Source: Macrostomum lignano (Eukaryota). From it: a stretch of 44,499 bases of DNA. Below, piece after piece: positions 1 through 21,448 of the stretch. The notes below the pieces were generated by a model. The model was given only the letters and a program-made list of their open reading frames with translations. It did no database searches and was not told the origin of the DNA. The position numbers and the translations under genes are program-made. The DNA lies in assembly GCA_002269645.1 (NCBI GenBank), contig NIVC01004485.1, positions 1-44,499 of the forward strand, written 5' to 3'. Every line of letters begins with the position of its first letter. The first letter of the stretch is position 1.

Positions 1-2
1 CA

Positions 3-463
3 GCTGGTGGAGTAGCAGGTGGGGCGGCTGGAATTGCAAAAGCAGTAAACGACAAAAAAGCTGCGGATGAAAAAGCCAAACGAGAGGCTGAATTCCAAAG
101 ACAGCAAATAACTCAGGATGCTCAATTTAAACAAAAACTGATTGATACTATTAATAGTAGTTCGGCAACAGCAGAACAAAAAGAAATGCAGAAGCTAAAT
201 TAGCGGCTGGAAAGGGTTTAATCTTACAAGGAACGACCCACGGAAGCGGGGTTGTAGCAGATAAATTACACGAATTCGGACAAACTTTGGAAAAAACCGG
301 CAAAAAAGCTAAAGGATTTTTTGATAATATCGGAGCCAATTTTAGGCCAGCTGTTCAGAAGATTTTTAATAAATTAGGAAAAGATTTTAACATAATTGAA
401 AAGCACGACGGAAGCGGCTTATATCTTGAAATGAGACCAAAAGCGGGATCTGGAATTTTTTAA
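3..463 (+). pseudogene. C-terminal part of a Polinton virion/core-type protein with the AGGAAGIAKAVN motif (5'-truncated by the window edge; frameshift at the A-run near 181)
   Basis: Frame 3 reads AGGVAGGAAGIAKAVNDKKAADEKAKREAEFQRQQ... After a 1-nt shift it continues RNAEAKLAAGKGLILQGTTHGSGVVADKLHEFGQ...HDGSGLYLEMRPKAGSGIF* (TAA 461-463). From memory, the motif recurs in invertebrate Polinton proteins. Not in the ORF track. Confidence 0.7.
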
Positions 464-550
464 ATGCAAACGTTTCAGGCAGCGGGCTAATTTTACCAAA
501 AGCGCAACTCGAGTAGGGTAGTAAATATTGTATAAATTTTATTCTATAAA

Positions 551-3500: not shown

Positions 3501-4144
3501 GACTTTGTTCTGCTCAATTAGGCATATTTATTTTAGCTCATTCAAGAAGAATTATGAATAATTTTATCACATCAATCGACGGATCAAAGAATCCAGAAAT
3601 TTATTACGGAGACACCGATTCATTATATATACATAAAAAACATTGGGATACATTAAATAAAAATGGGCACGTCGGAAATAATTTAAGTCAAGGAAAAAAC
3701 GATTATGGAGAGGGCGGAATTATATTCGGATATTTTATCGCTCCTAAAATTAAATATTGTCTTTTGTTGAAAGACGGTTTTATATTGGAAGAGAAAAAAA
3801 CATTTAAAGGTTGTGCAAACGATAGGGTTAATTTTGCATCGTTTAAAACTTTATATGATGGTCAATCAATAAAAGTAAATAATAACGCCCCATGGAAACG
3901 ATCGTTTGAAGGTGGTATAACAATTGGTCAAGGTTTTATATCAAAAACATATACACCATCAATTAATACTTATAAAAGAGAAAAACCGGATAAAAAAGGA
4001 ATTATGAAACCATTCTTTAAAAATTATTTTGATGACAAACCGGAACATGAACATACAATTGAATATTATAACAGCTTACTTTTTGATGTTGATTATAATT
4101 GTTTTGAGTTTGATATTGATGAACTAGCACTTATAAAAAACTAA
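551..4144 (+). pseudogene. polB: Protein-primed family B DNA polymerase (pPolB) with N-terminal coiled-coil/terminal-protein region and OTU-like protease domain, split into three ORFs (551-1444, 1417-3264, 3248-4144)
   Basis: ExoI YIFDFETY, ExoII AHNSSRFDSY, ExoIII YLQFD, (R)EAVKGGRV, motif A FDGVSLYPSAM, motif B KTLLNSLYGK, motif C YGDTDSLYI, APKIKY. Breaks: a -1 shift near 1415 and a tandem 10-bp duplication AATGAGAAAA (3237-3246/3247-3256). Repaired length is about 1190 aa. Confidence 0.97.
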
Positions 4145-4410
4145 AGCATGTAATTCCTTAAGTAGAATATCCATTTCCATTTCATATTTTATAGAACACC
4201 AATTATCTTCGCAATCGTCAGGATAACTTAAACACTCTTTTACTTTTTTCGAAGTATTTTTATTCGTCTAACAAGACGATCTATCTCATTTTCAATAACG
4301 GTTTCAGCATAAGCAATTGCGGCTTTTATAAAAGTTCTCTTTTTTCTAATTCATATCGAATCGGAAACATATCATCGTAAAGATACGCGAACTTCGTTCG
4401 GTCTCCATAA
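4142..4410 (-). pseudogene. Small degraded hypothetical ORF
   Basis: Piecewise minus-strand translation gives ...AYLYDDMFPIRYELEK / FIKAAIAYAETVIENEIDRLVRRIKNTSKKVKECLSYPDDCEDNWCSIKYEMEMDILLKELHAL*, which needs a frameshift. No recognisable motif. Confidence 0.35.
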
Positions 4411-4520
4411 TCACTATATTTCTGTTCGTTAATTATATTTAATTTTTTATTAATATCATTCATTTCTTTATTGTGAGTGCACAGAAGGTTTTTTACGCTC
4501 GCCATTTTCTTATAAAAAAT

Positions 4521-4844
4521 TTAGTCTTCCTCCCAAACAGCAGCCAATTTTACAGTCCTGTCAACCTTTTTGTTTATTGCTTGTCTTTGTTTAAATTGCA
4601 AACCATCCGTTGGTGAGTATTTCATAATAAAAGTTTTAGGTTTATTTATAACAATCGTTGGGAATTCTTTAACCTCATCGCCGCTTAAGCATAGTATTGT
4701 TCCACCGTTTAGTTGTAAAAATATCGATTGAATTCCGATAAATTTAACCTGTCTTAAACATATTATATCATACTCCTTCGGCACCAGAGAATTGGTGGTT
4801 AGAAAATTAATTTTATTAGAATCGGTTTTGAACCAGGTTTCCAT
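4521..4844 (-). CDS. Hypothetical viral protein (107 aa)
   Basis: Intact ORF with the element's TAAAAATG start context; no recognised motif. Confidence 0.6.
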   Translation of the reverse strand: METWFKTDSNKINFLTTNSLVPKEYDIICLRQVKFIGIQSIFLQLNGGTILCLSGDEVKEFPTIVINKPKTFIMKYSPTDGLQFKQRQAINKKVDRTVKLAAVWEED

Positions 4845-4870
4845 TTTTATTCTAAAAAAATAATAAAATA

Positions 4871-5411
4871 ATGAAACACAGATATGAATGTAATAAATGT
4901 AATATTACTATGCAAAGAGGACAAACAGCAAATTGAGATATATATCACATGTGTTATTCATGCGCTAAGATATATCAATTTGAAAAAAACAAAAAAGATT
5001 GAAAACTCATATTACTATTTCAAAAACACAATTATAAGAAATTTATCATGTGACATTTCACACCCATCCCTTCAAATGCCAGACGGCACACAAATTAATG
5101 CCATCCCCGGAAATAATGTTTATTTATATAATAACTTTTTTCATTTAAATAAAGGAAAAGGATTAAGTTCGAAAGACTCCGAGAGGATTTTAACTCTGGT
5201 TGGATATTATTTCAATTTTCTTATGAGAGAGAACACAAAACATATAAGGATCAGAAATATCCCAAGTGAAATGTTATTGAAAAAGTCATTGGTATTTTTA
5301 TGTATTGATAAAAAATTTGAACCTCGAATCAAAAGGCAATTACCATTGTGGGAAGAATATATAACTTATGTATTAAAAAAGTTACTGATGGGTCTACATA
5401 GAATTTCTTAA
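4871..5411 (+). CDS. Hypothetical viral protein, possibly with an N-terminal CxxC...CxxC zinc ribbon (disrupted)
   Basis: The track ORF is 4884-5411. An alternative frame from ATG 4871 reads MKHRYECNKCNITMQRGQTAN*DIYHMCYSCAKIYQFEKNKK and could join the main frame at the A-run near 4985-4997. Confidence 0.45.
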
Positions 5412-5425
5412 ACTCTCTAAATTAA

Positions 5426-5740
5426 TTATTTCCACACTTTTAATACTAAATGGAGCACCATATAAAACAAATTCTTCTTGCATATATTGTGGCAGGTTTT
5501 TTGGGGAATACCAACCAACCCCCTAACATAATTTTTAATAATATATACACCAAAAAAGTAGCATGGATAAGAACCATCCAACATCTGCGTATATATATTT
5601 ATACCATCTACCGAAGCCATTTTAAAAAGGATTTTATCCTCTACATTTAATTCTTCTTTCGTTACGTAAAAGGTTACATCTTTGGTAGACGGGCAGGAGT
5701 TCGCATCCAAAATAACTTTATGTATTATTCCTTGATCCAT
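5426..5740 (-). CDS. Hypothetical viral protein (104 aa)
   Basis: Intact ORF with CTAAAAAATG start context; no recognised motif. Confidence 0.55.
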   Translation of the reverse strand: MDQGIIHKVILDANSCPSTKDVTFYVTKEELNVEDKILFKMASVDGINIYTQMLDGSYPCYFFGVYIIKNYVRGLVGIPQKTCHNICKKNLFYMVLHLVLKVWK

Positions 5741-5764
5741 TTTTTAGAATATATTTTTAATAAA

Positions 5765-6447
5765 TTACACAACCTGAAGTTCTATCGTGCTACCTGACCG
5801 TGGGCTTTGTACACCATCAGCTATAACCTCAGGCTGGTACTCCATCGTTCCGAAGGAACGCGGACTTTGTCCGATCGTTTCTATAGGTGGAGGGTTCGGT
5901 TTGTCAAGTCTTAATTCTTTCAATTCCATATCGGTAAAAGCTTCAATATCTAAAATTCGATTTCTATCTTTTAAATATTTATCATATAACTCAACCGCGG
6001 TTGTTAACTCATATATTGTAATCTCTCCATCATCTAATATTTTTTGCACATATAAATATAACTGATTTTTATATTGTTTAGCAACATCTCTTAGTGATTT
6101 ATATTTATCCTTTCTTTTTTAAGATATAGTTTAATTGCCAAAAGAATTGATAAGTTTCTTATTAATTCAAAACCTGATATTGAACCAATTGAAATACCTA
6201 AAAATAATTGAGATAAATTAATAGTTGGAATCGATTGCAAAATACCCAAAACGATTACACATAACATTGATAAACTTCCAAAACCAATATTGAAAAAATC
6301 CATATTCCTGATATGGTTTGAAAGCTTTCTTAATTTTTTATTATATAAATCATAATCATAATTTATTCGATCGACATTACTTAACATGCGTCCTTTACGT
6401 TGGTTAAATAGATCGCGCTCTTTTCTGTCCGCTTCAGACACCGACAT
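5765..6447 (-). pseudogene. Two-transmembrane-helix Polinton accessory protein, frameshifted (track ORFs 6091-6447 and 5765-6049 joined)
   Basis: Hydrophobic pair FFNIGFGSLSMLCVIVLGIL / LFLGISIGSISGFELIRNLSILLAI. The downstream ORF's frame is open upstream (KDKYKSLRDVAKQYKNQLYLYVQKILDDGEIT) as far as the A-run near 6110-6120. Confidence 0.6.
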
Positions 6448-6763
6448 TTTTGTCTATTTTTAATAACACCAAAATGAATTCCCCACGCTCCTTAGGAATC
6501 TGTCCAGCGCTCAATAAGTATTGGATTGGAGTTATTCTTTCTTTTTTCTCCCATTTAAATCCAATCTTCCAAAACTCTTGTAATATAATATGGTTTTTTA
6601 ATAATTTAATTAACTCCTGAAGTTTCTTATTGTCTTGAACATTCACTCCGCTAAATAAAATTTTGGTATGAGATCTAAAAGTTTTTATATTTGATTCTTG
6701 TTTAGGAATCGGAATAATAATATTATTACCTTGCCGCATTGATGGAGTTCTGCTAAAAGCCAT
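6434..6763 (-). CDS. Hypothetical viral protein (109 aa)
   Basis: Intact ORF with TATAAAATG start context; overlaps the start of the next gene. Confidence 0.6.
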   Translation of the reverse strand: MAFSRTPSMRQGNNIIIPIPKQESNIKTFRSHTKILFSGVNVQDNKKLQELIKLLKNHIILQEFWKIGFKWEKKERITPIQYLLSAGQIPKERGEFILVLLKIDKNVGV

Positions 6764-6813
6764 TTTATATAGAAATATTTTAGACTAACTTATCGCCCCG
6801 TAGGGTCGCAGCT

Positions 6814-8807
6814 TTAGCTGATAGCTACCGGCGGCCTTTCCAAATAAGGAGTAGATGGAAAAGTATAACCAAATGATGTACTACCACAAACTATTGCTCC
6901 ACGAATAAAATGCGCCGCATCCGCTCCTCCGGTTCGAGCACCAAACCCCATAAGCGTTCCGGATTTATCTAGATCTCCCCAAGTGCCACTATCATACGTA
7001 AAAACATTTTGCCCAATTAGTGTCAAAGAATCTCCAGCAACATTGTATGAGCTTAACTGATACCAAACTCTTTGATTAAGAATATTAATTTCAAAAAGAT
7101 GCCAATTGCCATTATCAATATTGGCATAGGTTACAGTTTGGTCGGCGTCATTTAGAACGTCATTGCGGACGGTTGCTCCGTCAGCTTTTTTATTACTCCA
7201 AAGCAAGCCGAATCTGTCATGCCATTCACTAGCAAACACTATTAAGCCGGCGTCGGTTGTTAAATCAGATCCATATTCCGTTGTTGGTCGTTGGTGGCAG
7301 TAAGCATAAAACCAAACGGCGTCTGCACCAGCTCCACCACCCGCAGCATTAGCAACTCGGAAATAGAAGGAGACAGAAACATTACGGAAATGGGTGAAAT
7401 TAAATTGTAACGCTCCATTGAGTCCAGCGCATTCGTCAGTAATTCTTGCGCCGTTTTGATAATCAATATAAATCGCATTTCCAACCATAGACCCAGTTGG
7501 AAAAATATCGCCAGCAGTTGTTGGGTTTTGATAGCCATTCCAATTACATATTACTGGCTCATATAAAGCGGCATCAATTGCCGGAATACCATCCAATTTA
7601 ATTTTATCATTAAAAGACATTCTACCGTCCGCCGTTTGTGTTACAACCGTATCGACATAACCTTTAGTCACAACAGATGTGTTATCGTTTATAGTAGATA
7701 TATTAGTAATTGTATTACCACCCATATCAATAGACTGATTTACTGCTCCTAAATTCAAATCAATAACGGTAAAAGTCTGCCTGTAAATCTGAAATGTTGA
7801 TAAGCCTGGATTGGTTGAACCCGATGTTGATGTAAGACAAAACAATTTGAAATATGAATATTCTTTATCAAAATTTTGTGTGACATTAAATGTTTGGGTT
7901 GAATTATTTAACTCCGCCGAACTCGCCGCCGGAATCAAAACATCATAACTTGTATTGTCATTACTTCCTTCAAATCGCCATGAAGCAGGGTGCTCGGTTG
8001 AGGGCGACGGTCTACCACGCAAATCAATTTTATAACACATTATCGCGGATGGACATTGGACTTGAATCCAGTAATCTGTTTGTGTTGCATTAGTTGCCCA
8101 ATCCGTTGCGTCGTCCCCATCAAAAGCTTTCCAACTTGCAAAGCTGGTTGTATTAAATGCCGAGCTTGCTGTGATCGCAAAACCGTTTCCACTCCAAGCA
8201 GCCATTGTTGGTACATGACCGGTTTGAACGGTTTGGAACCTATCTTGTTTTGGGGTTCCGCTCCCGACTATATTATCAACCTCGGTTTTGGTATAAGAAT
8301 CCGCGACATTTCGTTTCAAATTTAAGGAGTTATCTATTTGAGTTTGACTATAGGAATCGCTTATATCTCTTTTTAAATTTAACGAATTATCAACCTCGGT
8401 TTTGGTATAAGAATCGGTTATATCTCTTTTTAAATTTAATGAATTATCAATTTCCGTTTTGGTATATGAATCTGCCACATTCCGTTTTAAATTAAGTTCG
8501 AAATCAACTTCGGCTTGACTATAAGAATCTAATATATTACGTTTTAAATTTAATGAATTATCTATTTCCGTCTTGCTATATGAATCCGCAGTATTGCGTT
8601 TTAAATTTAATGAATTATCGATTTGAGTTTTGGTATAGGAATCTGCAACATTCCGTTTTAAATTTAATTTAGTATCGATTTCACTTTTTTATAACCTTCG
8701 TCTTTATTTATATATCGGTTGTCTCCAAATGTAACACTTATTCCACTCGATTCTCCGCCGCCAGTTCTTGAAGTTCCGTTCCATGAGGGTGTTCCACTAA
8801 ATAACAT
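6814..8807 (-). CDS. Putative receptor-binding fibre/spike: 19-aa repeat shaft, discoidin (F5/8 type C)-like domain, stalk motif and C-terminal ConA/L-type-lectin-like domain; one frameshift near 8685
   Basis: The likely start is ATG at 8807 (MLFSGTPSW...), with one A lost in the run at ~8685-8690. Then come 8 x DSYTKTEIDNSLNLKRN repeats; WKAFDGDDATDW...YWIQVQ...WRFEGSND (discoidin-like); MGGNTITNI...TKGYVD (fibre stalk motif); and GADAVWF...WHLFEI...GFGARTGGADAAHFI (legume-lectin-like). Confidence 0.75.
8270..8700 (-). repeat. 57-bp coding tandem repeat (about 8 copies) encoding the fibre shaft
   Basis: The units ADSYTKTEIDNSLNLKRDI / TDSYTKTEVDNSLNLKRDI / SDSYSQTQIDNSLNLKRNV etc. differ largely by synonymous or conservative changes. 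Confidence 0.9.
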
Positions 8808-8830
8808 TTTTAGAGTCCATTTTTACCATA

Positions 8831-9263
8831 TTAAAATGAATCCAATATGTTTTTAAAATCCTCTGGAGTTTCTTTCGAGTTACGAATTTTATATAAAAAA
8901 TACAACGCCGCCTGTCCACAATAACTTTTATCAAAGGTTTGAAACTGTTCGTGATAATCTCCACATAATCGATTTTTAGTATTTAAATTTGTCTTTTATT
9001 TCATGCAACGGGGGTAGGCCAAATGAATCAAAAAAATAAACGAGTTTGGGTTTTGAATAAACTGCTGACCAATGTACACCATTTTCTTTGGTTGTTTCAA
9101 TATTGACAATGAAAGATCCATATCGTGGTAAGTCTTTTATCTCATCGCGCATAACACATCTGAATGGTTTTATTTTTAATTGCCGCGCCCAGTTTGTCAA
9201 TTCAATATTACTTGTTGTGTCCGTTCCATATCTTTGTTTGAACTGATTCCAACTCATAGTCAT
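8831..9263 (-). pseudogene. Adenain-like (adenovirus-type) cysteine maturation protease, frameshifted near 8980
   Basis: Catalytic His in NGVHWSAVY and Asp in YFFDSFG (track ORF 8976-9263). The missing Gln/Cys part lies in the next frame: RLCGDYHEQFQTFDKSYCGQAALYFL...ILDSF* (stop 8831-8833). Confidence 0.9.
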
Positions 9264-9264
9264 T

Positions 9265-9474
9265 TTATGTTCCTGAAAAACTCTTTGTTTTTGTTAGTTT
9301 CTCGGACAAAGTCCGCGACACTACGTGGCGACTATCCGCGGGTTTTAATAGTTCCTGTCTTGTTTTTTCGGCTTGTAGATGTTTCAATTTTGTTAATTCG
9401 ATTTCATAATTATCTTTTGCTTTTTGAACTTTTACCATTTGATTTTTTATCATACCTTCGGTACTATTACCCAT
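9265..9474 (-). CDS. Small coiled-coil hypothetical protein (69 aa)
   Basis: Intact ORF packed between penton and protease, with CTAAAAATG start; its stop TAA forms part of the protease start motif. Confidence 0.6.
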   Translation of the reverse strand: MGNSTEGMIKNQMVKVQKAKDNYEIELTKLKHLQAEKTRQELLKPADSRHVVSRTLSEKLTKTKSFSGT

Positions 9475-9484
9475 TTTTAGAATA

Positions 9485-10270
9485 TTAAACCTGTTTTATT
9501 CTTAAAATTATTGTTATTGCTTGTCCGCCAAAACTAATAAGTCGATCCGAATCATCTACAACTCTTATATAAATTGATTGTAAATTATATTGATTTAGTG
9601 GATAATAAATTGGGGTTTGAGGTGCAACTATCATTTTATCCCCAATTGGCACAGCTAAAAATGGAATTGAATAAATAATTCCGCGCTGAACCAAGAATCC
9701 GTTATCATCTGTTATATAACCACCATTTGAAATATCGGTTGTAATATTAATTGTGTTGACTCCGCCTTCAATATTTCCCACGGTATCGCCCGTGGTTGAT
9801 GTGGTAACGATTCGGGAATTAAATCCTAATATGGTTCTAAGTGAATTGGCAATTGTAAAATCAACCTGATATCCGGCTGCTAACGTAAGTGTGAATCTGC
9901 CTGATGGTAAATCAACTCCTATAACAATCGCGTCTGCTACCCAATCACCATTATCTGTTAACTCAGCTTGTATTACGGTATTCAAATCAGTATAGTTATA
10001 TGCGCCCGGTGTTATAGTAATGGTTGTCCAATTTGCTCCTGAATCTTTAGAATATCTAAATTGATTATTTGTTGCATTAATCAATTGAGGCATGTTAAAA
10101 ACTGAAAACATTATTAAACCAATTTCATAACTTAATGTCTGATCAAGAGTTAGTGGGTTACGTAATTGAATCCTTTGCTCGCTGCTTGTCATTACAAATT
10201 GTAAAGTCGTACTAAATCTTGCGTTGGTTCTATCAACCACTTGTTTTATTGTATCGAGGTTCACTGCCAT
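9485..10270 (-). CDS. Minor capsid protein (penton, single jelly-roll)
   Basis: Likely start MAVNLD at 10270. Beta-rich, with the Polinton penton pattern NATNNQFRY...ITITPGAY...LGF...IYIRVVDDSDRLISFGGQAITIILRIK. Confidence 0.85.
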   Translation of the reverse strand: MAVNLDTIKQVVDRTNARFSTTLQFVMTSSEQRIQLRNPLTLDQTLSYEIGLIMFSVFNMPQLINATNNQFRYSKDSGANWTTITITPGAYNYTDLNTVIQAELTDNGDWVADAIVIGVDLPSGRFTLTLAAGYQVDFTIANSLRTILGFNSRIVTTSTTGDTVGNIEGGVNTINITTDISNGGYITDDNGFLVQRGIIYSIPFLAVPIGDKMIVAPQTPIYYPLNQYNLQSIYIRVVDDSDRLISFGGQAITIILRIKQV

Positions 10271-10304
10271 TTTTATAGTGTGAATTAGTACCAAAGTCCG
10301 ACCA

Positions 10305-10779
10305 TTACTCCTCGTCCTCTTCCTCTTCCTCTTCCTCGTGTATCAAATTTTGTAAGATTCTATTTCTCCTTTCTAACCTAGTGTTGATATAAATATGTTT
10401 GTATTGGTTGTCATCCCAAATTTTTTTACACATGCTTTTGAATGGTTTTGGATCTAAACCAGGGTTAAATCTCACGTGTATATTTTTTAAATCATAGTTA
10501 TCTAGATCAAACATTACACAACAGCTAGCATTCTTTTTTATAATTGAATCTAATTCTCTAAAGGATTGAGTAAGATAAAATGCCCCAATTCCATCTCCTC
10601 TGCCGCTAACAAAAATTTCTTTTTGCAACTCTTGATCACCATCATAAATACAATCATCAAATACAATTAATGTTTTATCGTCTTTTGGGATTTTATCATA
10701 GGTTAATCTGTTTGATATTTGGATCGTTGGGGAGTTGTTGTCGACGTTTTCTGGATTCTGCGCAGTTTCTCTACATAAA
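10305..10779 (-). pseudogene. A32/FtsK-like genome-packaging ATPase, C-terminal part
   Basis: Reads LCRETAQ...KTLIVFDDC (Walker B)...SGRGDGIGAFYLTQS (A32 motif C) and ends in an acidic tail. Joins 15993-16288 in frame once the retrotransposon is removed. Confidence 0.93.
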
Positions 10780-10783
10780 CCCT

Positions 10784-10957
10784 TATGGGTATTTTGTTGT
10801 ACTTTTTATTTGCAACTCAGTTTGTCATAAATTACCATAGACTAATTTCCTTTTACAGTTCTTTCTCGCAGTTAAGTTTCTCGCCCCAAGCCCTCTCGTC
10901 TTTAACTCATAAAATATATTGCAATTCGAATCTAAGTCAAGTTGTAGTTTCACTACA
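10784..10957 (+). repeat. 5' LTR (174 bp)
   Basis: TATGGGTATT...TTTCACTACA; matches 15819-15992. It starts TA rather than the canonical TG. Confidence 0.95.
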
Positions 10958-10960
10958 AAT

Positions 10961-10976
10961 TGGTCCGGTGAGGCGG
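10961..10976 (+). promoter_or_regulatory. Primer-binding site
   Basis: TGGTCCGGTGAGGCGG lies 3 nt after the LTR. TGG-T-CC fits a tRNA with an A discriminator and a C1:G72 pair (tRNA-Tyr-like), but the primer identity is uncertain. Confidence 0.65.
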
Positions 10977-11022
10977 CGAAAGATATTACTCGCATACTCA
11001 ATACTCACAGAAGACAAATCCA

Positions 11023-11928
11023 ATGACGGACAGTGCAAGCAACAATTCCGCTCCTACACCACCTACAACCACGCAAGCCGCACCAAGTTCGGCCGCACCA
11101 GTGGTTACAACTGCAGTAGGAAACGCCGCCGACACCGCTATAGTCTCCCTGGCCCACCTGAAGCTGCCAATCTTCTATCGCAACAACCCGGAAGCATGGT
11201 TCCTCACGCTGGAGGCCCAGTTTATGCTCAACAGGGTGACCAACGAGACCGCCAAATTTTACCACCTAGTCTCTCATCTACCGGAGGATATCGCGGCTCT
11301 GCACTTGTCCGCTCAGACTCCAAAACAGTACGAACAACTGAAATCAGCGATTACATCGACTCTGCAAAAGTCCAAGCAGGAGAAGGTTTCGGAAGTATTG
11401 CAAGTCTCGGACCTCGGAGGAGACAAGCCATCAATCTTCATGCGCAAACTCCGGAGCAAGATGGAGCAGTGCCAGATACAGCCCGACGAGGATCTCCTCA
11501 AGGCCACTCTGATGCGCTGTCTTCCACAGGACCTTCGTATCGCACTGTCGGGATTCCAACAGCAGTCATCCCAGCAAATTTCCGAGATTGCTGACTCGAT
11601 GTTGGTCGTCAGAGGCCTTAGCTCTCCACCGCCAGCGACAGTTTGCCCAATTCAGCAGGCCGGTGCAGATCGGACACCCCAACAGCGCTTTGAGCAAGCT
11701 CCACACCGACAAGCACCTGGTAAGCCCACTGGAACAGACCCATTTAAGCCTGGCCAACGCCCCGTCGTTTGCCGCTCACACCTCTACTATGGCCGCCGTG
11801 CTCGGTCGTGTCGCCCCTGGTGCCAGTTTCCCAAGGACAGCTCGCGTCTGATCCGAGTGCTGCATCCCAATGAAAAAACGCCATCTCAGTCGCGTTCATC
11901 ATCACCTTCTCGACAGCCGGAAAACTAA
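11023..11928 (+). CDS. gag: Gag (301 aa)
   Basis: [16 protein letters not shown]-terminal motif and C-terminal [18 protein letters not shown] (CHCC) motif. Confidence 0.93.
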
Positions 11929-14900
11929 ATCGCACTGCGACCGAGGTCGCGGTGCGCAGTGCCGAGATACCATCGACCACCTGTTTGGAGTTAGATGTTA
12001 AAATCAACAATACCTACAGCAAGTTTCTTGTGGATACCGGAGCCTCGGTTTCCATTGTTCCACCTCACCTCGTTAACGCACTCGTTCAAGATACAAACGT
12101 TCGTTTAATTACTGCTACCGGAGCCGCCATACCAGTTCGCGGGTCGGTCCTACTGGATGTCTCAATCCGCGGTTTGCGTCGCGCCTTCCAGTGGACCTTC
12201 CTCGTGGCGTCAGTGGTGAAACCCATAATTGGTTACGATTTCTTGGCTCACCATGGGTTAGTTGTCGATTGTCAGCGCAAACACGTTCGAGACTCAGAAA
12301 CAGGACTGTCTACTGTTACCTTGTCAATTTCAAATGTTCATTGTGGCCCATTCACTGTGTCGGTAGAACTGCCACCCAACCTGGATTCTCGGACGAGTAC
12401 GCTGTTGACAAAGTTTGCAGATTGTTTTTCTTTCGTTGAAGGCGGAGCCCTTCCGCCAGCTTCAGAGGTCAAGCATGACACTGTTCACCGGCTAGACACT
12501 GGTAGTGGACAACCAATTCACTTGCGACCCCGGCAACTGCACCCTGCAAAACTACAGGCTGCAAAGCAGGAGTTTCAGCAGCTAATCGATGCTGGCTACC
12601 TCAGACCTTCCTCAAGCGCTTGGGCGTCACCCCTCCACATGGCACCCAAGGGAGCTGGCTGGCGTCCGTGCGGTGACTATCGCGAATTGAACAAACGAAC
12701 AAAGCCGGACAACTATCCGGTTCCACACATTCAAACATTCACTCGGTACCTACACGGAAGCACTGTGTTTTCAAAGTTAGACCTTGTTCGCGCCTTTCAT
12801 CAAATTCCAGTCGCCGAAGAGGATATTTGCAAAACCGCTATCACCACACCGTTTGGATTGTTCGAGTACACACGCATGCCCTTCGGCCTGAGGAATGCAG
12901 CACAAACATTTCAACGCTTCATCGACTCTGTTTTTCACGGACTGTCATTCGTCATCTCTTACATCGATGATGTCCTGATATTCTCAAAGACTCGTGAGGA
13001 CCACTACTCGCATTTGGAACAAGTTTTGGACCGCCTAAGAACACACGGCCTACAGGTTCATTTGAAGAAGTGCGAATTCTTTCAGTCCGAGGTAGATTTC
13101 CTTGGCCATCGCGTGACTCCTGAAGGAATAAAACCTCTCCAGAAGAAGATCCAAATAATCACTGACTGGCCGACACCCACGGATTCGAATGCACTTCGGC
13201 GCTTCCTCGGTGTCGTCGGTTTCTACCGTCGATTCGTTCCCAACTTTGCCGACTGCATCTGTCCGCTGCAAGACCTACTCACTGCATCACTACAGTCAGC
13301 AGGAAACTTCCAATGGACAGAGCAGCATCAGAAATCTTTCGAAAACATCAAACAAGCTCTCTCAGAGAGACTACTGCTGCATCATCCGGACCCCAACTGT
13401 ACTGCGTACCACCTGTACACTGATGCCTCAGCCGACTGTGTTGGTGCCGTTCTGCATCAAACCTCTTCAACCGGAACGTCACCTCTTGGCATGTTCAGCA
13501 AGAAGTTGTCGTCATCTCAAAGGATGTACAGCACGTTCGACCGAGAACTACTCGCGGCGTACCTGGCAGTGTTGCACTTCCGCAGCCTCATTGAAGGACT
13601 GAGCGTGACCTTGTTCACCGATCATAAACCACTAGCTCAGGCCTTCCACGCCAATCGCACCACTACGTCAGATCGCAATCAGCGCTACTTGACCGTCTTG
13701 TCCGAGTACGTGGCAGATGTCCAGTACATTCGCGGTGCAGACAACGTAATAGCTGATGCCCTTTCTCGACTGCCTGACTTCCCAGTGAATGATCACGTGT
13801 CCAACATCGCAACAGTCGCTGTAGTCGCTGCCCCATCAAGCCAATTCCCTGTTGATCTGCCCAGTATCGCTGAAGCACAACGACCGGAGTCGTTCTCAGC
13901 TGCACCAAATATTCGATCGTATTCTCTGGACAAAGACGTCGTCGTTTGGTGTGAGACGTCAACGCCGTATCCTCGCCCGATCATTCCGCCATCCCTCCGC
14001 GACGCCGTGATTGCTTCCTTCCATCGACTTGGTCATTTCGGCTACCGTAAAACAGCAAAACTCATCACAGAACGTTACTTTTGGCCCGGAATGCGCAAGT
14101 CCATCAAGACCTACTGCTGGAACTGCCAGGACTGCCAACGGAGTAAAGTCACTCGCCACACTGTCTCCCCGCAACAGGCCTTCGCATTACCATCAAATCG
14201 CTTTGAGGCGGTACACATCGATATTGTGGGACCACTTCCACCAGCTAATGCTACCACCTTTGGCCACCAGTCTGCTCGCTACCTTCTCACGATGGTCGAC
14301 CGCTCGACTGGCTGGCTAGAAGCTACACCACTGGAATCAATAACCGCGGAAGTAGTCGCCCATGCATTCGTCTCGTCTTGGGTCTCGCGCTACGGAGTGC
14401 CACTGTATGTAATCACTGATCGGGGGCGCCAGTTCGAATCAGAATTCTTTCACTCGGTCTCGTCATCAATTGGTTTTCATCGATTACGCACAACGGCCTA
14501 CCACCCTCAAACCAATGGCAGGGTCGAGCGAGCCCATCGCACCCTGAAGACGATGCTACGTGCTCGAGGCAATGACTGGCTGACAGACCTACCTGTGGCT
14601 CTCCTCGCGATGCACGTCGCACCTGACGACCAAGGAATATCACCGTTCACCAGGGTTACGGGCGAGCTTCCGATGGTTCCGCGCATTCTAACTTCTGAAC
14701 CACTCGCCCCAACGGACATTCGGACACGGCTGCAGGAACTGCTGACAGAGTTACCGAGTCCACACGCGAAGACGCACGAACCACGGAGCTACGTACCCAA
14801 GGACCTGGAAATGGCTGAATTCGTCTGGGTTCGGGTCGATCGCGTGCGGTCGCCGCTCGAGGCGCCGTACTCAGGGCCGTATCGCGTGAAACAGCGAACT

Positions 14901-15068
14901 GACAAGTTCTTCGTTATTTTCCTACCGTCAGGCAACACCGAATCTGTCTCTATCGATCGCCTCAAGCCGGCGCGACTTTCGCTTCCGAAGTCGGCTGTTC
15001 AAGTCGGCTGGCAGGGTCGAGCGAGCCCATCGCACCCTGAAGACGATGCTACGTGCTCGAGGCAATGA
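11919..15068 (+). CDS. pol: Pol polyprotein (protease, RT, RNase H, integrase), probably reached by a -1 frameshift; C-terminus altered by an internal duplication
   Basis: [10 protein letters not shown]; RT YIDDVLI; RH YTDAS...DRELLA...TDHKPL; IN zinc finger H-H-C-C, HIDIVG / ITDRGRQFE / VERAHR, and GPY motif. The frame is open from 11919 ([14 protein letters not shown]...). Confidence 0.96.
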
Positions 15069-15494
15069 CTGGCTGACAGACCTACCTGTGGCTCTCCTCG
15101 CGATGCACGTCGCACCTGACGACCAAGGAATATCACCGTTCACCAGGGTTACGGGCGAGCTTCCGATGGTTCCGCGCATTCTAACTTCTGAACCACTCGC
15201 CCCAACGGACATTCGGACACGGCTGCAGGAACTGCTGACAGAGTTACCGAGTCCACACGCGAAGACGCACGAACCACGGAGCTACGTACCCAAGGACCTG
15301 GAAATGGCTGAATTCGTCTGGGTTCGGGTCGATCGCGTGCGGTCGCCGCTCGAGGCGCCGTACTCAGGGCCGTATCGCGTGAAACAGCGAACTGACAAGT
15401 TCTTCGTTATTTTCCTACCGTCAGGCAACACCGAATCTGTCTCTATCGATCGCCTCAAGCCGGCGCGACTTTCGCTTCCGAAGTCGGCTGTTCA
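14516..15494 (+). repeat. Tandem duplication (493-bp period) of the integrase 3' region
   Basis: 14516-15001 is repeated at 15009-15494 with a 7-bp linker AGTCGGC. Track ORF 15046-15624 is the second copy plus the original C-terminal tail. Confidence 0.93.
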
Positions 15495-15804
15495 GCCGGC
15501 CGCGAACTCGCTGCCGGAAAAAGCCGCCAAACCAAAGGAACCGGTGGACTCATCACCTCCTAGAGCGACCTCTAGCGGCCGCCGAGTCCAATTCCGACGC
15601 CATAATGATTACATTTATTATTAACCTTGTAATGTATAACGTCTACTGACTGCTGTTCCAATGTTCTCAATATTTCTCAATGTTCAACCCTTCATATAAA
15701 ATTTAGCTCGTATTTCAACTGTATAACCGCTTCGTTTCAATAATTTAAGCCATTCCACCATTTTATAATTCAGTTACAGTCTCTTTTCCCCGTGCTCCGC
15801 AATT

Positions 15805-15815
15805 GGAGGGGGGAG
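15805..15815 (+). promoter_or_regulatory. Polypurine tract
   Basis: GGAGGGGGGAG just upstream of the 3' LTR. Confidence 0.85.
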
Positions 15816-15818
15816 TCG

Positions 15819-15992
15819 TATGGGTATTTTGTTGTACTTTTTATTTGCAACTCAGTTTGTCATAAATTACCATAGACTAATTTCCTTTTACAGTTCTTTC
15901 TCGCAGTTAAGTTTCTCGCCCCAAGCCCTCTCGTCTTTAACTCATAAAATATATTGCAATTCGAATCTAAGTCAAGTTGTAGTTTCACTACA
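15819..15992 (+). repeat. 3' LTR (174 bp)
   Basis: Appears identical to 10784-10957; followed by the TSD CCCT. Confidence 0.95.
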
Positions 15993-16288
15993 CCCTCAAT
16001 GTCAGAAAGTTTGAATTTTGGTTCATCGTCGTCCTCATATTGCTCATATGCTCTTAACATTCTAAATAAAATATCTTTTTTTAGTTTGTTTTTTAATCCA
16101 TGTTTAAGAAATTCATAATATTTTATTCTAGGTCTATTTGTATATATTATTAAATTATTATAATCTAACATTCCATTGGTTGTTAATAAATCATAAACAA
16201 AGTGTGTTTTTCCTTTACCTGATCCTCCAACAACTAAACAAAGAAAAGGGTCGTTGGGAAATATTTTATTATGTTTTGGCTTTACCAT
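15993..16288 (-). pseudogene. A32/FtsK-like packaging ATPase, N-terminal part
   Basis: Walker A CLVVGGSGKGKT. Excising the retrotransposon and one CCCT restores LSDIEG|LCRET and a 256-aa ORF. Confidence 0.93.
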
Positions 16289-16308
16289 TTTTTAAGGAAA
16301 TAAATTAA

Positions 16309-17790
16309 CTAACTTTTTCCTATGGGGGCGTCCTGAACAACGGTGCCGTCGGCTTTAGCAATCGCCATATACTCCTCTAGAAACAATGCGTGGGCGTCTA
16401 CTGCCTGATTTCCAGTTTTATTAATCTCCAACATATAATTCAAACCAATATTTGCTACATTTGCTTTCTGTGCGGTTAGATCAAAAACAACCACGGGGTG
16501 AATGTTTAGAAACTCTGTGGGAGTATATTGAGGAATGGCGTAGGCTTCGTTTTTGACGTAATCCTGATAATATTTTATAAAATCATTAACATCATTATTT
16601 CCAACATTTAGATTAAGGGGGTTTTTAACAGGATAATATTGATCATCAACCTGCAGTCGGATGTTCTGAAGATTAAATGTGTTAATCGCCGAAAGCGCGT
16701 TGTCACTTGCGGTGGCTGCTTGAGCTGCTACATCACCAGATTGAAGCCAATATAAATCACCGTTTCCTCTTTTGCTAGTTCTGTTTGGTATTTTAAACCA
16801 AATAAAAATATACCTCACCCGACGTTTTGTTTGTATGATTTGCCACTGGAATGAATCCTGATTGTTATTAATGGTTCGCATAAAGTGGCGGCGATTCAAA
16901 TAAAATATATCCTGGTCTAACATTATCTGATCATCAATATGTTTTAAAAGCGGAGCAGTTACCTCGATAGTTGGCACAACTAATTTAATCGAAACAATTC
17001 GAACTGCAATATCGGTTGAGGTTGAACTTCCAAAAAGTATCCTGGGCTGATATCCACCAGATATTTGCAGTTGTACCCCAAATTTTAATCCCTTCCATAC
17101 CCGATTTGGTGAGAAAAACCCAAATAGTGGAAAGATTGAAAAGTCTTCCTCATAAGCGGTTGCTGTGGTTAAAACCGCGACTGGGAATTTATTCCGACGG
17201 TCTATAAAACCAGTGTTTATATTTTTGGTGTTGGTTAGATCCGTTACAACCGGAACTATATTATTATTTAAATAATTAATAAGAGCTGCGGTGTCTGCGC
17301 CAGCTGCTGGTGTTATTTGGGGAAAAATCCATGGTCTACCATCTCCCTTATCAGGCATCCATCCAACGTTATCACCAACCTGTTTTGATAAATATGTATA
17401 ATTTAAATGTTTCAAAACTCCATTAATCTCTGCTGGGTTTGTAGCCGTCTCAACCTCGGCTCCGTTAATGGTTAGTTGTGCTTGGGAAAAACATTTATAA
17501 AACCAATCATTTTCTATAATAATGCCAGCGCGATCAGCGATATCGGGGGCTGTAAGGGCTGTTCCATCGTTTCTGGTATACAACCACCTAACTCGGAAAA
17601 ACGCATTTTTCATATCCAATATGCTGCTGGTTGCACCAATGTCAAAAGTTACTGTTCCCGTTGTAAAGTTATTTGAATTATCGCTTGTTGGTTGGGTGTA
17701 ATTTAAATCTCTTGATCTGACCTCATTGATATACTGTCGTTGTTTTTTGAAATGAAATTTATCACTCCAAATGGTTTTTGTCTCGGCCAT
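16309..17790 (-). CDS. Major capsid protein (double jelly-roll, Polinton PY/hexon-like), 493 aa, intact
   Basis: Size, beta-rich pattern (VTFDI...LDMKNAFFRVR...ENDWFYKCFSQAQLTINGAEVE...) and position beside the ATPase and penton. Confidence 0.88.
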   Translation of the reverse strand: MAETKTIWSDKFHFKKQRQYINEVRSRDLNYTQPTSDNSNNFTTGTVTFDIGATSSILDMKNAFFRVRWLYTRNDGTALTAPDIADRAGIIIENDWFYKCFSQAQLTINGAEVETATNPAEINGVLKHLNYTYLSKQVGDNVGWMPDKGDGRPWIFPQITPAAGADTAALINYLNNNIVPVVTDLTNTKNINTGFIDRRNKFPVAVLTTATAYEEDFSIFPLFGFFSPNRVWKGLKFGVQLQISGGYQPRILFGSSTSTDIAVRIVSIKLVVPTIEVTAPLLKHIDDQIMLDQDIFYLNRRHFMRTINNNQDSFQWQIIQTKRRVRYIFIWFKIPNRTSKRGNGDLYWLQSGDVAAQAATASDNALSAINTFNLQNIRLQVDDQYYPVKNPLNLNVGNNDVNDFIKYYQDYVKNEAYAIPQYTPTEFLNIHPVVVFDLTAQKANVANIGLNYMLEINKTGNQAVDAHALFLEEYMAIAKADGTVVQDAPIGKS

Positions 17791-17824
17791 TTTTATAGGT
17801 TAAAAAAGTTTTTTATGTTAAAAA

Positions 17825-18508
17825 ATGAGTCAGTTTATGGACGTTGATGGAGAGTTGGCGATTTATAAAGAGAAGCAAAGATATTCTGATTTTGTTAGAG
17901 ATTTACAAAAAAGAAAGCTAGGAATACAGTTAGCTGGCGAAAAATTTGCTGCTCCTTTTGTTAATCCTATTACGGGGAAAATTAGTGAATTAACAAAAAC
18001 TGATAAAGACCTTCTTGAAAAAATAGCAAAGAATACGGAGCCAAAAGAGGAAGATATTGTGGAGGATGAGCCGCCTACTTATGATGAGGCACGGGCTGTT
18101 TTGAGAGTTGCAGAGATTAGAGCTGCGGAACGTGGTGGTGATATTGAGCGATTTCAAAGAGGTGCGCCAGCGAGTGTTGCTGTTATAAATTTAGGGAATG
18201 ATAATTATCGGGTTGGTACTAGGGTTACAAAAAGTCGGGATGATTTATATATAGAGTTGGGTGGAGCATTTAATATTGTTACAAACCCTAGTGTAAAGTT
18301 TAATCCTGATTTATATACTCGGGACGAATTAATAAGTGCTAAAATTTTTTATGATGATTTGGGTGAAAGTGCTGTTAAAAGAACTAGATTGTATAAGCAT
18401 ATTGTTGATTCCATAAATAATAAAAGGGCTGTTGGGCAAGGATTAAAGACTCCGCGAAAACTTGTTTTAGCCGCTGCCAAAGCTGCCGGACATACTGGAA
18501 TTAATTAA
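17825..18508 (+). CDS. Polinton conserved hypothetical, possible core protein (227 aa)
   Basis: Intact ORF with TAAAAAATG start; N-terminal helix with FAAPFVNPI and a basic tail after AVGQGL. Confidence 0.7.
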   Translation: MSQFMDVDGELAIYKEKQRYSDFVRDLQKRKLGIQLAGEKFAAPFVNPITGKISELTKTDKDLLEKIAKNTEPKEEDIVEDEPPTYDEARAVLRVAEIRAAERGGDIERFQRGAPASVAVINLGNDNYRVGTRVTKSRDDLYIELGGAFNIVTNPSVKFNPDLYTRDELISAKIFYDDLGESAVKRTRLYKHIVDSINNKRAVGQGLKTPRKLVLAAAKAAGHTGIN

Positions 18509-18532
18509 TTTGTTAAATTTGTTTTTTATAAA

Positions 18533-19085
18533 ATGGATATAGCAATAAAAAGACACCTTTGTAAACCCATTTGTGAAAAGATTGGATCAGATAGAATACT
18601 AAATAAAATATTTCAAGATGATTTAATAATTGCAAACCGTATTAAAACTATTCAAATGAGGCTTGGATCTCTTTATGAATTATTAGCTATTGAATATTTT
18701 GGTTTTGAAAAAATAAATAGAATTGATTTAATTCATACTAAAAGAAAAGTTGCGTTAGAGTTAAAATCGTCTGATAATACAGATCAGATAATATATTAGT
18801 CTGATAATATCGAGTCGATTTAGAAATATTCAGAAGTTATTAGAATTTAGATATGTCAATCCCGAATTTGATTTATATTATATTTGCATTAATAACACCA
18901 CTAAAAATCCTGTACATAAAGTATTTGATAATGGTGTTACTCTGTTAACTGGGGAATTTGCTTTAAAATTTTTATATGGTGATCAATATTTGGAAATAAT
19001 TAAACTCATTGAAAATTGTTTTTTAGACATTAAAAATGAACCAAACAACGTTCGCGATCCGAAGGAACGACCAACTTGTGTATGA
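18533..19085 (+). pseudogene. PD-(D/E)xK restriction-endonuclease-like protein (Eco47II-like), disrupted near 18790
   Basis: QMRLGSLYE...RIDL...VALELKSSDNTD, then after a TCTGATAATA micro-duplication it continues SRFRNIQKLLEFRYVNPEFDLYYICIN...LLTGEFALKFLYG...CV* (TGA 19083-19085). Confidence 0.6.
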
Positions 19086-20648
19086 AGGTGGCTTGTTGGA
19101 TGTTCAAAAAGGATTAACAAGCTTACCAAGCGTTTTTACTAGTGGGAAGTATACAAATGAATTACACATTCCAGGGTACTCGTTTGCAGGTTATCCGTGG
19201 CCTGAGTGAGGAAGTCAATGTCCTTGCTAGTCACTATTAGTGGCGACATCTTCAAATTGCGTGAAACCCGTCATACAGCTTCAAGTCCACTTCAATTGAG
19301 AAATCTTTTGAAGGAACAGAGGTAACTCCTCTTCCCAAAGGTAACAAGCTTGAAGACAAGGTGGCAATGCGCAGCCAAGCTCCTAAGTCCGTCCGGTGGC
19401 CGATATGGAGAAGGTTCAGAGAGCAGACGGAGATGGGTGGTAATTTAGCCGTTTAAGGTGTGCTCCAGCCTCTATCGAAAGATTGGGGGTAAACTACCCG
19501 GGACAAGATTGGATTTGAGATTAAATCCAGATGGAACTCCAAAAGCAGATTCAATTTCCATTAACGGAATTGATTGGTTAGCATATTATCATGACTTAGC
19601 ATACAGAGATGCTGATAAGAACTCTCCTGAGGAAGCATTAAGATTAAAGCATGAAGCCGATAGAAAAATGATTGAAGGATTAGATAATCTGCAAGAATTG
19701 TCGGTTGGCCAAAGATTAACTCGGTGGATGGTTAAAAAGATTTTGCAGTCTAAAGTTAAATTTGGTTTGGGAATTAATTATAATCAACATGGAAATAATT
19801 GTGTTGAGTGTTTGCTATTAAGTGGTGGTGGGTTAAGTTCTGATGAGGCAAAGATTCTTCACAAAGAATACCGAAAACCGAAATTTTACAGAAAGATCAT
19901 GAACTTTAAAAAGAATGAAATTTGGTATGCTGATTTAATGGCTATGCCGTCCGATCGGGGATATAAATATATTTTAACTATATTAGATGGTTTTACTCGA
20001 TATGCGTGGGCTGTTCCTTTGAAGTCCAAAAAAGGAGACGAGGTTGCTTCTGCTTTTAGAAGTATTGGAGAAAAAAGTGAACGTTTATGTGTTGATGAAG
20101 GAAAGGAATTTTATAATCCACATATGTATAAATTATATCATTTTGAAAAAGGAAAAGAAAGGAAAAAGGACGCTAATGGGGAGTATATTAATAAGATTTA
20201 TTCTATTTATGGCGAAAGCAAAAACGCTTTAATAGAAAGATTTAATCGAACTTTAGGTAAGAAATTGTGGTTTGAGTTTAGGCTTAATGGTAACCAAAAA
20301 TGGGTAAAGATATTATTAGACGTAGTGAAAGATTATAATAATTCATTTCATTCGGCTATAAATATGACTCCGCAACAAGCTTATAACAATCCTGAAAAAG
20401 TTAAAGTTACTTTTGGAGAATTTGAAAAAAAGAAAAATAAACCTTTTAAAGTTGGTGATTCTGTTTATATCTATAAATGGAAAGATAAGTTTGAAAAGGG
20501 AAGAAAAGGATATTAGAAAATAAGTGAGAAATTTTCTGTTAGTAAAGTTTTAAATACAAATCCTACAACCTATATCATTGCTGATAAAGATGGTGAAGAA
20601 ATATTGGGTTCGTTTTATGAAAGCCAATTACTTAAGGCAACAAGGTAG
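19036..20648 (+). pseudogene. Parvovirus-type phospholipase A2 domain fused to a Polinton RVE (DDE) integrase; split by a 305-bp insertion and a TAG
   Basis: ATG 19036 gives ...ELHIPGYSFAG|PGTRLDLRL...YYHDLAY...HEAD (PLA2 Ca-loop and HD). Integrase motifs WYADL, LCVDEGKEF, IERFNRTL. The TAG at 20514-20516 sits at a conserved Trp and the frame continues KISEKF...PTTYII.D..GEEILGSFYESQLLK to 20648. Repaired length is about 435 aa. Confidence 0.92.
19191..19495. other. Unclassified 305-bp insertion
   Basis: More GC-rich than its flanks; splits the Gly codon of FAG|PGT; removing it restores the frame. No TSD or TIR evident. Confidence 0.8.
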
Positions 20649-20795
20649 TAATTTTTTTATAACAAACAAAAGTAATATTATTACTATTGTAGCTACTAAT
20701 ATCATTATTGACATTTGTTCAACTGTTACCAAACTTAAATTTTCATGAAGTTCTTTAACTGGAACTTTGCCAATGTAGGAATAATTTATGTTCAT
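20628..20795 (-). CDS. Small single-TM hypothetical protein
   Basis: Probable start MNINYSY (CTAAAAAAATG); hydrophobic MSIMILVATIVIILLLFVI followed by KK. Confidence 0.55.
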   Translation of the reverse strand: MNINYSYIGKVPVKELHENLSLVTVEQMSIMILVATIVIILLLFVIKKLLPCCLK

Positions 20796-20811
20796 TTTTT
20801 TAGTTATATTT

Positions 20812-21111
20812 TTACAGATTATCTGAATCACTAGTTTCATAAGAACTATTTGTTGATTCGGAATCTGTTGACCTAACCTCCCAATCCTCGGAATTTAAAT
20901 AATCTCCAAGTTGAAATATTAACTCACCCTCTTGTTCTAAATCATACAAACCATCTAACTCTAAAGGATAAAGTTTTAGTTCGTGCTTGTCGTCGTATTT
21001 TAAATAAACTTCCTCAATTATTCCATTCAATATGTGCTGTTTTATTATCTCTGCATTTTTAGCAACGGTCTCAAAAGTATCACTTACTGAAAAGTTGTAA
21101 ACTCGGTTCAT
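20812..21111 (-). CDS. Small acidic hypothetical protein (99 aa)
   Basis: Intact ORF with CTAAAAATG start; last gene before the terminal non-coding region. Confidence 0.6.
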   Translation of the reverse strand: MNRVYNFSVSDTFETVAKNAEIIKQHILNGIIEEVYLKYDDKHELKLYPLELDGLYDLEQEGELIFQLGDYLNSEDWEVRSTDSESTNSSYETSDSDNL

Positions 21112-21124
21112 TTTTAGTAACAGA

Positions 21125-21448
21125 AAAAGACCCTTCGCGCCTACGGCGCGGGCGACGGGTTTGTGTGTGTTTGTGTGTGTTTGGATGCTTTTTGAATACG
21201 ATACAAAATTGCCAGCAAACTAAAGCGAACGACGAGAGCGAATTCTCAGTATTCAAAGAGAATTGATCATTATCAAGTTGAAATGAAGTGTGTTTGAGCG
21301 GAATGAAGCGAGGATGAGCGGAGCGAGTTGAGCGGAGTGAAGACGAGCGATAATGGAGTGAAAAACGATTCATTTCAACTTGATAATGATCAATTCTCTT
21401 TGAATACTGAGAACGGTTTGCTGGCAATTTTGTATCGTATCTACTACT
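21125..21448. repeat. Right terminal non-coding region (probable TIR) containing an internal inverted repeat
   Basis: Perfect arms 21196-21220/21416-21440 (25 bp) and 21243-21287/21369-21413 (45 bp); ends in CTACTACT. TIR status is inferred because the left end is not visible. Confidence 0.8.

Follow-up and report, generated by a model that had tools for sequence, protein, structure and literature searches.

Eco47II recognizes GGNCC and gives its name to a restriction endonuclease family (PF09553). The related specificities of AvaII and EcoO109I are GGWCC and RGGNCCY, respectively, and in AvaII catalysis depends on E123, D147, Q161 and K163, while G:C pairs are read by N167, T168, N170 and S171 (PMC7337904). 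Six families of homing endonucleases are described, of which those with a restriction fold, the I-Ssp6803I and EDxHD types, have long sites (PMC3943268, PMC3984707, PMC3424549). In collaborative homing, found at psbA of cyanophages, a free-standing endonuclease acts together with an intron that has no ORF (PMC3984707, PMC11296320). Reviews place nuclear group I introns in rRNA genes of microbial eukaryotes only (PMC3679873), and cite group I introns of animals solely from mitochondria of early-branching groups (PMC3984707).

Here we describe a locus in a window of 44,499 nt, by which we mean the whole stretch of Macrostomum lignano DNA that was analysed. It carries an integrated Polinton/Maverick element, recognized by PF03175 (pPolB), PF00665 (rve integrase), a weak PF04665 (A32 ATPase) match and a terminal inverted repeat (Table 1); its capsid and protease candidates are assigned by size, order and motif alone, and the contig lacks about 1.2 kb of its left end. 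Contigs C506, C952, C393 and C67, which hold copies bearing the intron described below, also carry Wnt genes, so the host is an animal. We observe at this locus a restriction fold with its motifs, the absence of a methylase and of GGNCC, a group I intron and its position in the next gene, and sisters in which the nuclease is encoded inside the intron. We consider it probable that the nuclease, likely a cutter of GGNCC, serves as the homing endonuclease of the intron in the PLA2-integrase gene. In its proposed working the system resembles a mobile group I intron of the collaborative-homing kind; it is not a type II restriction-modification system, as it has no methylase, nor, in the window's family of elements (family A), an intron-encoded nuclease.

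Table 1. Features of the Polinton and of its nuclease-intron region in the window; residue numbers follow the intact sister protein P0001.
Feature	Position	Strand	Remarks
Host Polinton, family A	1..21448	.	split pPolB, discoidin-domain protein, protease, minor/major capsid candidates, ATPase
LTR retrotransposon insert	10784..15992	+	identical 174-nt LTRs; outside the system, internal control
Polinton ORF, 227 aa	17825..18508	+	function unassigned; left border of exchangeable nuclease slot
Nuclease gene, 5' part	18533..18799	+	Eco47II/EcoO109I-like; Q41, E49, D65, E76-x-K78, N82-T83-D84; premature stop ends frame
Break region	18780..18810	+	short insertion with 10-nt repeat, frameshift, stop
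Nuclease gene, 3' part	18810..19085	+	other frame; overlaps start of next gene
PLA2-integrase exon 1	19036..19191	+	52 codons, ends ...YSFAG; last base U pairs with G of internal guide; junction fixed by intron-less alleles L025 and L036
Group I intron	19192..19496	+	305 nt, IC1-like with P5abc, no ORF; guide 19200-19204; P7 19419-19425 with 19461-19466; last base A
PLA2-integrase exon 2	19497..20516	+	starts PGTRL; PLA2 HD motif, rve integrase; early stop in window copy
Right terminal inverted repeat	21109..21448	.	339 nt, AGTAGT-type terminus

The motifs that the preliminary description had picked out (Q-x-x-LG-x-x-YE, IDL, ELKSSDNTD and SSR..N..KL) are real, although in the window copy they are divided between two frames: QMRLGSLYE, IDL and ELKSSDNTD all lie in the frame at 18533-18799, while SSRFRNIQKL and the remainder lie in the second frame, which ends with TGA at 19083-19085, and all are intact in sisters. 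The overlap with the PLA2-integrase gene is also as described, the 3'-end of the nuclease gene covering the ATG at 19036. The micro-duplication proposed at about 18770-18810 stands only in part, as a 10-nt repeat and a frameshift are present but the event is an insertion and not a clean duplication; among loci L001-L020 this insertion is common to the window and to a twin copy on contig C581 alone. Judged by its frames, the window's own nuclease copy is dead, and the protein analyses were all done on the natural intact sister P0001. Sister copies in the genome amount to at least 42 DNA matches and at least 103 protein matches. In 74 screened nuclease loci (73 from the host genome and metagenome contig L021) an uninterrupted frame with the motifs was present in 39, the other 35 being broken or partial, and intact family-A nucleases are 161–177 aa long. 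Purifying selection on the nuclease is indicated by dN/dS, the median of which is 0.24 for family-A pairs (51 of 78 with dS >0.1), 0.29 for pairs of family B, a second Polinton family in this genome (10 of 36), and 0.18 for pairs across the two families (117 of 117).

Polinton copies of the nuclease match RE_Eco47II (PF09553) alone in Pfam, at 20.6 and 23.8 bits and thus below the cut-off of 25.9, whereas the two broken pieces of the window gave no Pfam match. The Eco47II-like assignment suggested earlier nevertheless agrees with the relatives, as 27 of the 30 tested (chosen among 150 listed) match the family, 18 of the 30 above cut-off, and the nearest Atlas clusters of the nuclease are Eco47II and EcoO109I. 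The predicted structure of the intact sister (pLDDT 89), compared with 48,161 chains, has EcoO109I (1wtd) at the top with Z 9.7, an rmsd of 3.7 and 166 aligned residues, the next rows having Z of 6.4 or less; Foldseek places the DdmD nuclease domain first, followed by EcoO109I and AvaII (E 2.8e-4). A PDB sequence search with the single protein returned nothing useful, and a profile search against the PDB gave AvaII as its sole match in a weak alignment (E 0.34), which sets E123/D147/Q161/K163 of AvaII against E49/D65/E76/K78 and N167/T168/N170/S171 against N82/T83/N85/S86. D65, E76 and K78 are invariant across 18 diverse homologues, and IDL and ELK occur in 39/39 open frames, these frames having been selected on the ELKS motif. 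The predicted model thus has an EcoO109I/AvaII-like fold with its catalytic residues kept, and the D and ExK are retained in sisters, in accordance with the PD-(D/E)xK nuclease that had been proposed. With EcoO109I, AvaII and the Eco47II family the Polinton nuclease has in common the PD-(D/E)xK fold, the catalytic residues and the N-T-x-N-S loop for base reading; it differs in having no cognate methylase, in its length of about 167 aa, in its tie to a group I intron and in being part of an animal Polinton. In the predicted model there is no additional domain for binding DNA, and the protein is smaller than either EcoO109I or AvaII. From these likenesses, and from the site loss described below, we suggest that GGNCC is the likely site of cleavage.

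No methyltransferase was found in the window, as had been remarked before, nor in the left end of about 1.2 kb that is seen in the twin copy, nor near any nuclease copy, those of family B included. A genome-wide search covering the C5 family (PF00145) gave 12 matches, all on contigs other than those of the nuclease copies. The adjacent cognate methyltransferase that marks a type II restriction-modification system is hence absent. The earlier term "orphan" is right as to the methylase but misses that the nuclease has a partner, namely the group I intron that splits GGNCC in the next gene. The annotated phages searched gave no match and a first scan of viral contigs found no relative; the homologues in large viruses that had been named in the preliminary description do exist, as 65 viral-contig relatives, many of them from giant-virus bins. 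These large-virus proteins are the nearest relatives with annotated context, with 24–40% identity to the nuclease; 64 of the 65 have a C5 methylase within 520 bp, the contigs keep GGNCC (525 observed vs 859 expected), and one relative is a methylase fusion. The large-virus and chlorovirus restriction-modification pairs resemble the Polinton system as viral enzymes in a eukaryotic cell, but they have the adjacent methylase and keep their sites, whereas in the Polinton site loss and the intron would provide the protection. PacI is a bacterial restriction enzyme that is said to lack a methylase and whose own genome is without its site; it is similar to the Polinton case in these two respects but differs in its HNH fold, its 8-bp site, its bacterial origin and the lack of an intron. 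We infer that the Polinton nuclease descends from the endonuclease partner in a restriction-modification pair of a large virus, the methylase having since been lost.

Depletion of GGNCC, which had been put forward as a check, is pronounced. The window element, with the retrotransposon excluded, has 0 GGNCC in 15.9 kb where 8.4–18.7 are expected, a deficit greater than that of any other among 256 gapped patterns, and both GGWCC and GGSCC are missing; the inserted LTR retrotransposon, serving as internal control, is undepleted, with 17 sites against 17 expected. In four further copies of family A, the twin not counted, the numbers of sites are 0, 0, 1 and 0, and family B has 0 in 16.9 kb and 0 in 17.4 kb. 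Codon shuffles predict 11.4 sites in family A and 16.0 in family B against the 0 observed, none of 1000 shuffles being as low, and in the same kind of test neither the retrotransposon (13 vs 17) nor a third Polinton stretch (6 vs 11) is clearly depleted. This third stretch (L083:651-9895), which is distant and contains PLA2, integrase, protease and ATPase, has no nuclease and an ordinary GGNCC content of 7 in 9.4 kb. Four intron-less copies have 1, 1, 1 and 2 sites in 11.5–16.5 kb, the junction site included each time. Gly-Pro is likewise missing from the window ORFs (0 vs 7.7 expected in 4054 residues), while the window's host flank has 3.2 GGNCC sites per kb. The purged sequence is the core site of EcoO109I, AvaII and the Eco47II family. 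Two observations count against a simple link to the nuclease, namely that CCNGG is mildly low in family A, although normal in family B, and that copies without the nuclease are purged of GGNCC as well, which an enzyme from outside could explain. One could thus imagine that an outside GGNCC system, for example that of a helper large virus, drove the purge, and that the nuclease gene was acquired later and reads a longer junction site in the manner of a classical homing endonuclease. The frequency of methylase-paired relatives in large viruses fits such a course, and a long site would spare the host, but a protein of 167 aa with no extra domain for DNA binding is ill suited to it, the bases around the GGNCC junction vary freely among copies, and this host also carries the unpurged third Polinton stretch, so that we regard this course of events as improbable.

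The intron interrupts GGT|CC, where successive codons for Gly and Pro (GGN CCN) encode part of a loop of PLA2, and the ligated junction reads GGT CC; intron-less natural alleles fix the junction and hold the whole PF08398 domain. Rfam RF00028 scores the window intron at 55.3 bits (cut-off 50), detecting it in a query of 400 nt and missing it in one of 3.7 kb, and sisters score higher (L150 65.4, L105 88.9, L116 82.6 and L021 80.6 bits). The hallmarks of a group I intron are present, with a U-G pair at the 5' splice site, a P3-P7 core and a guanosine-site G-C pair that is invariant in 9/9 intron sequences. Helices P1-P9 and P5abc can be drawn from one of these nine aligned sequences, three rows of which are without P1-P2; in the alignment 91.8% of cells pair, and both partners vary in 32 of the 81 pairs, as against at most 10 in slid controls. 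From P5abc and the likeness to the Tetrahymena intron we take the window intron to be IC1-like. Searching the genome with a tight pattern gives 113 introns of this type (type 1). In type-1 introns P7 is unusual (GAGCA/UGCUC) and the position that is usually A306 is a G; for environmental proteins P0002 and P0177 there are signs of this P7 too, with the nuclease lying inside the intron. The last base is A instead of the usual G in 39 of 45 scored family-A type-1 introns, a figure in which some copies are counted twice and which includes the window's, and G in 23/23 family-B introns and in L021; the coral ND5-717 intron is a precedent for a terminal A (PMC6545197). A type-2 group I intron occupies the same junction in L134:1390-1714, L055, L059 and about 20 further copies, with a rebuilt P4 and a canonical P7, and its RF00028 score is 32.5, below cut-off. 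Its 3' flank differs from the usual Pro-Gly, so that splicing would change the PLA2 loop and leave it without GGNCC, the 3' splice site being uncertain, and L041:600-1426 carries an insertion of about 825 nt within P8 of a type-2 intron.

The window intron is predicted to be self-splicing. Its single-strand folding energy was no better than that of shuffles (z -0.31), and splicing is opposed by one contig that runs unspliced from the intron into exon 2; four contig-only runs of uncertain kind, too little to speak against splicing, gave no joint at the intron ends, and no holder of the intron is on record as RNA. The genome has 23 intron-less alleles, of which 21 read GGCCC and not GGTCC, which counts against homing; the GGCCC alleles may be a poorer target, or may be unable to host an intron that needs U at its splice site. 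We find it very improbable that nuclease and intron are both decaying relics, with the integrase made from an internal start without splicing. The broken window copy, the broken or partial state of nearly half of the nuclease loci, the terminal A and an ATG-started integrase frame of 282 aa within exon 2 could all be taken that way, yet the low dN/dS within each family, the compensatory pairs across intron types and PLA2 exons that remain in frame across the intron are hard to reconcile with decay. RF00028 introns in protein genes of eukaryotic dsDNA viruses are also found in protist Polinton-like viruses (PMC12220804) and chloroviruses, but those reported are of protist hosts only, lie in other genes and have no nuclease assigned (PMC12220804). 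In viral contigs L302, L303, L307, L308 and L333 several P motifs of group I introns are clustered in a few kb. Among 125 viral loci with an intron P motif we found neither the PLA2-integrase nor this nuclease, and the best intron matches in them are of about 71–74% over 150–200 nt.

The tie between nuclease and intron is seen in other copies. In family B, which has a different gene order, the nuclease is about 65% identical to that of family A and is encoded inside a related intron, in the P2.1 loop, at the same codon junction; in 33/33 family-B nuclease loci examined the gene follows exon 1 and the 5' part of the intron. Metagenome contig L021 likewise has the nuclease inside an intron at this junction, and 15 of 31 environmental homologues (examined of the 32 best matches) read on into an intron core. 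In the window's family A the nuclease is free-standing beside an ORF-less intron. In a tree of 39 proteins, rooted at the midpoint and lacking genomic context for several rows, family A is sister to family B (92/86) within an intron-encoded clade (97/85 and 96/91), and since family A is nested there, a position outside the intron is likely the derived condition. In family A the slot ahead of exon 1 is filled by the nuclease, by a zinc-finger gene of HNH-like type or by an acidic ORF. Over 75 slot loci, which were hand-picked and are partly near-duplicates, those with the nuclease have a type-1 intron in 30 cases, a type-2 intron in 7 and no intron-less case (37 loci), and those with other slot genes have an intron in 35 of 38 and are intron-less in 3; the association is not significant alone (hand-computed Fisher p about 0.12). 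Not one of the 23 alleles without an intron has the nuclease within 1.5 kb. In the 75 loci the slot gene and the intron type are freely combined, as would be expected from repeated gene conversion, and the slot has the look of a place where rival selfish nucleases replace one another. The HNH-like gene (L025:825-1394, L191:6960-7529, L134 and others) encodes 190–205 aa with an N-terminal CxxC...CxxC finger; it has no Pfam match, and its nearest named Atlas clusters are HNH at 0.87–0.89. A 155-aa acidic ORF occupies the slot in L029 and L144.

GGNCC spans the intron-less junction and is broken by the intron, which would make the empty junction the target. We therefore picture homing as follows. 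The Polintons would tolerate the enzyme through loss of every GGNCC except the site that the adjoining Gly and Pro codons impose in the PLA2 loop, and this last site would be interrupted by the intron in DNA, while splicing would restore the sequence in RNA. As the purge would leave the empty intron junction as the sole site, a 5-bp cutter could act as a single-site enzyme and hence as a homing endonuclease. When genomes with and without the intron replicate in the same cell, cutting would occur at the intron-minus junction only, and mending the break would copy the intron into it. In family A the gene has likely moved out of the intron and would act from the exchangeable slot beside it. The family-A layout is the same as in collaborative homing at cyanophage psbA (PMC3984707, PMC11296320), but the Polinton tree suggests the reverse path, from intron-encoded to free-standing, and the putative site is a short one of restriction type, for which both the small protein and the purge speak. 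I-Ssp6803I (PD-(D/E)xK) and I-Bth0305I (EDxHD) also combine a restriction fold with a group I intron and have the target at the insertion site; these belong to other families, are bacterial or from phage, and have long sites (17 bp for I-Ssp6803I, PMC3424549).

The enzyme would also cut host DNA, at about 3 sites per kb, and unpurged rivals. Expression is then likely confined to lytic replication, and it counts against our reading that a short-site cutter expressed from an integrated copy would kill the host cell. Host-DNA degradation and exclusion of competing elements, both named in the preliminary description, are plausible side effects. Integration support, the third role named there, was rejected, since nothing found supports it, an rve integrase is already present in the element and the nuclease is missing from many copies. 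The enzyme could alternatively be a weapon in the first place, shredding host chromatin and rival viruses in lytic growth, with site loss and intron as a self-immunity that replaces the methylase, and homing incidental. The short site with its frequent occurrence in the host flank would suit a weapon, a genome-wide purge implies that the enzyme meets the whole viral DNA, and in family A the gene has been kept although it lies outside the intron; degradation of host chromatin is the role ascribed to chlorovirus enzymes (PMC7019647), and an intron nuclease aids phage competition (PMC11620839). Although compatible with the reading we prefer, this priority seems to us unlikely, because the nuclease is intron-encoded in family B, in L021 and in about half of the environmental homologues examined, with family A nesting among them, and because the many family-A copies that have no nuclease suggest that it is dispensable for the spread of the element. 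Returning to homing as the main role, we propose more tentatively, as a view almost as apt to be right as wrong, that the whole is a methylase-free restriction system, in which immunity would consist of the purged genome and the self-splicing intron, the cutter would drive the intron into rival Polintons and destroy host or competitor DNA, and a ribozyme, ending in A in one family, would splice protein-coding RNA in animal nuclei.

The literature searched, mostly open-access main texts, yielded no group I intron in an animal Polinton and no Eco47II-like intron nuclease, and a term search of two animal-Polinton papers found mention of neither (PMC10748475, PMC8502044). More than 100 group I intron copies in protein genes of integrated viruses of an animal genome stand against reviews that confine such introns to rRNA genes and mitochondria. 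If our reading is correct, the system shows how a type II restriction enzyme could become a homing endonuclease without acquiring a longer site, the methylase-paired, intron-encoded and free-standing stages all being sampled. For homing, as for site loss throughout the genome, the viral genomes would have to replicate in the presence of the enzyme, an argument for a genuine replicative and competitive phase of animal Polintons. The locus also offers a very small putative enzyme of the GGNCC family and a natural candidate ribozyme with terminal A.

Several further features were observed in the window and in related contigs. The retrotransposon splits the ATPase gene and has an internal tandem duplication of 486 nt (14516-15494); the twin copy on C581 is without it, so the insertion is very recent. 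A tandem array of about 57-nt units (8272-8688) lies beside the discoidin-domain gene (6814-8205), and a long internal inverted repeat (21196-21440) lies within the terminal repeat. The host flank has an AMOP-domain ORF (29975-31519, minus strand), RNase H (27075-27680) and reverse-transcriptase remnants (23274-23969). Family-B Polintons (L177:450-2948 and L177:4571-6037) encode a primase-D5 helicase, and the N-terminal part of their PolB contains an endonuclease VII domain; a host tandem repeat (L086:6228-7220) contains GGNCC every 8 nt.
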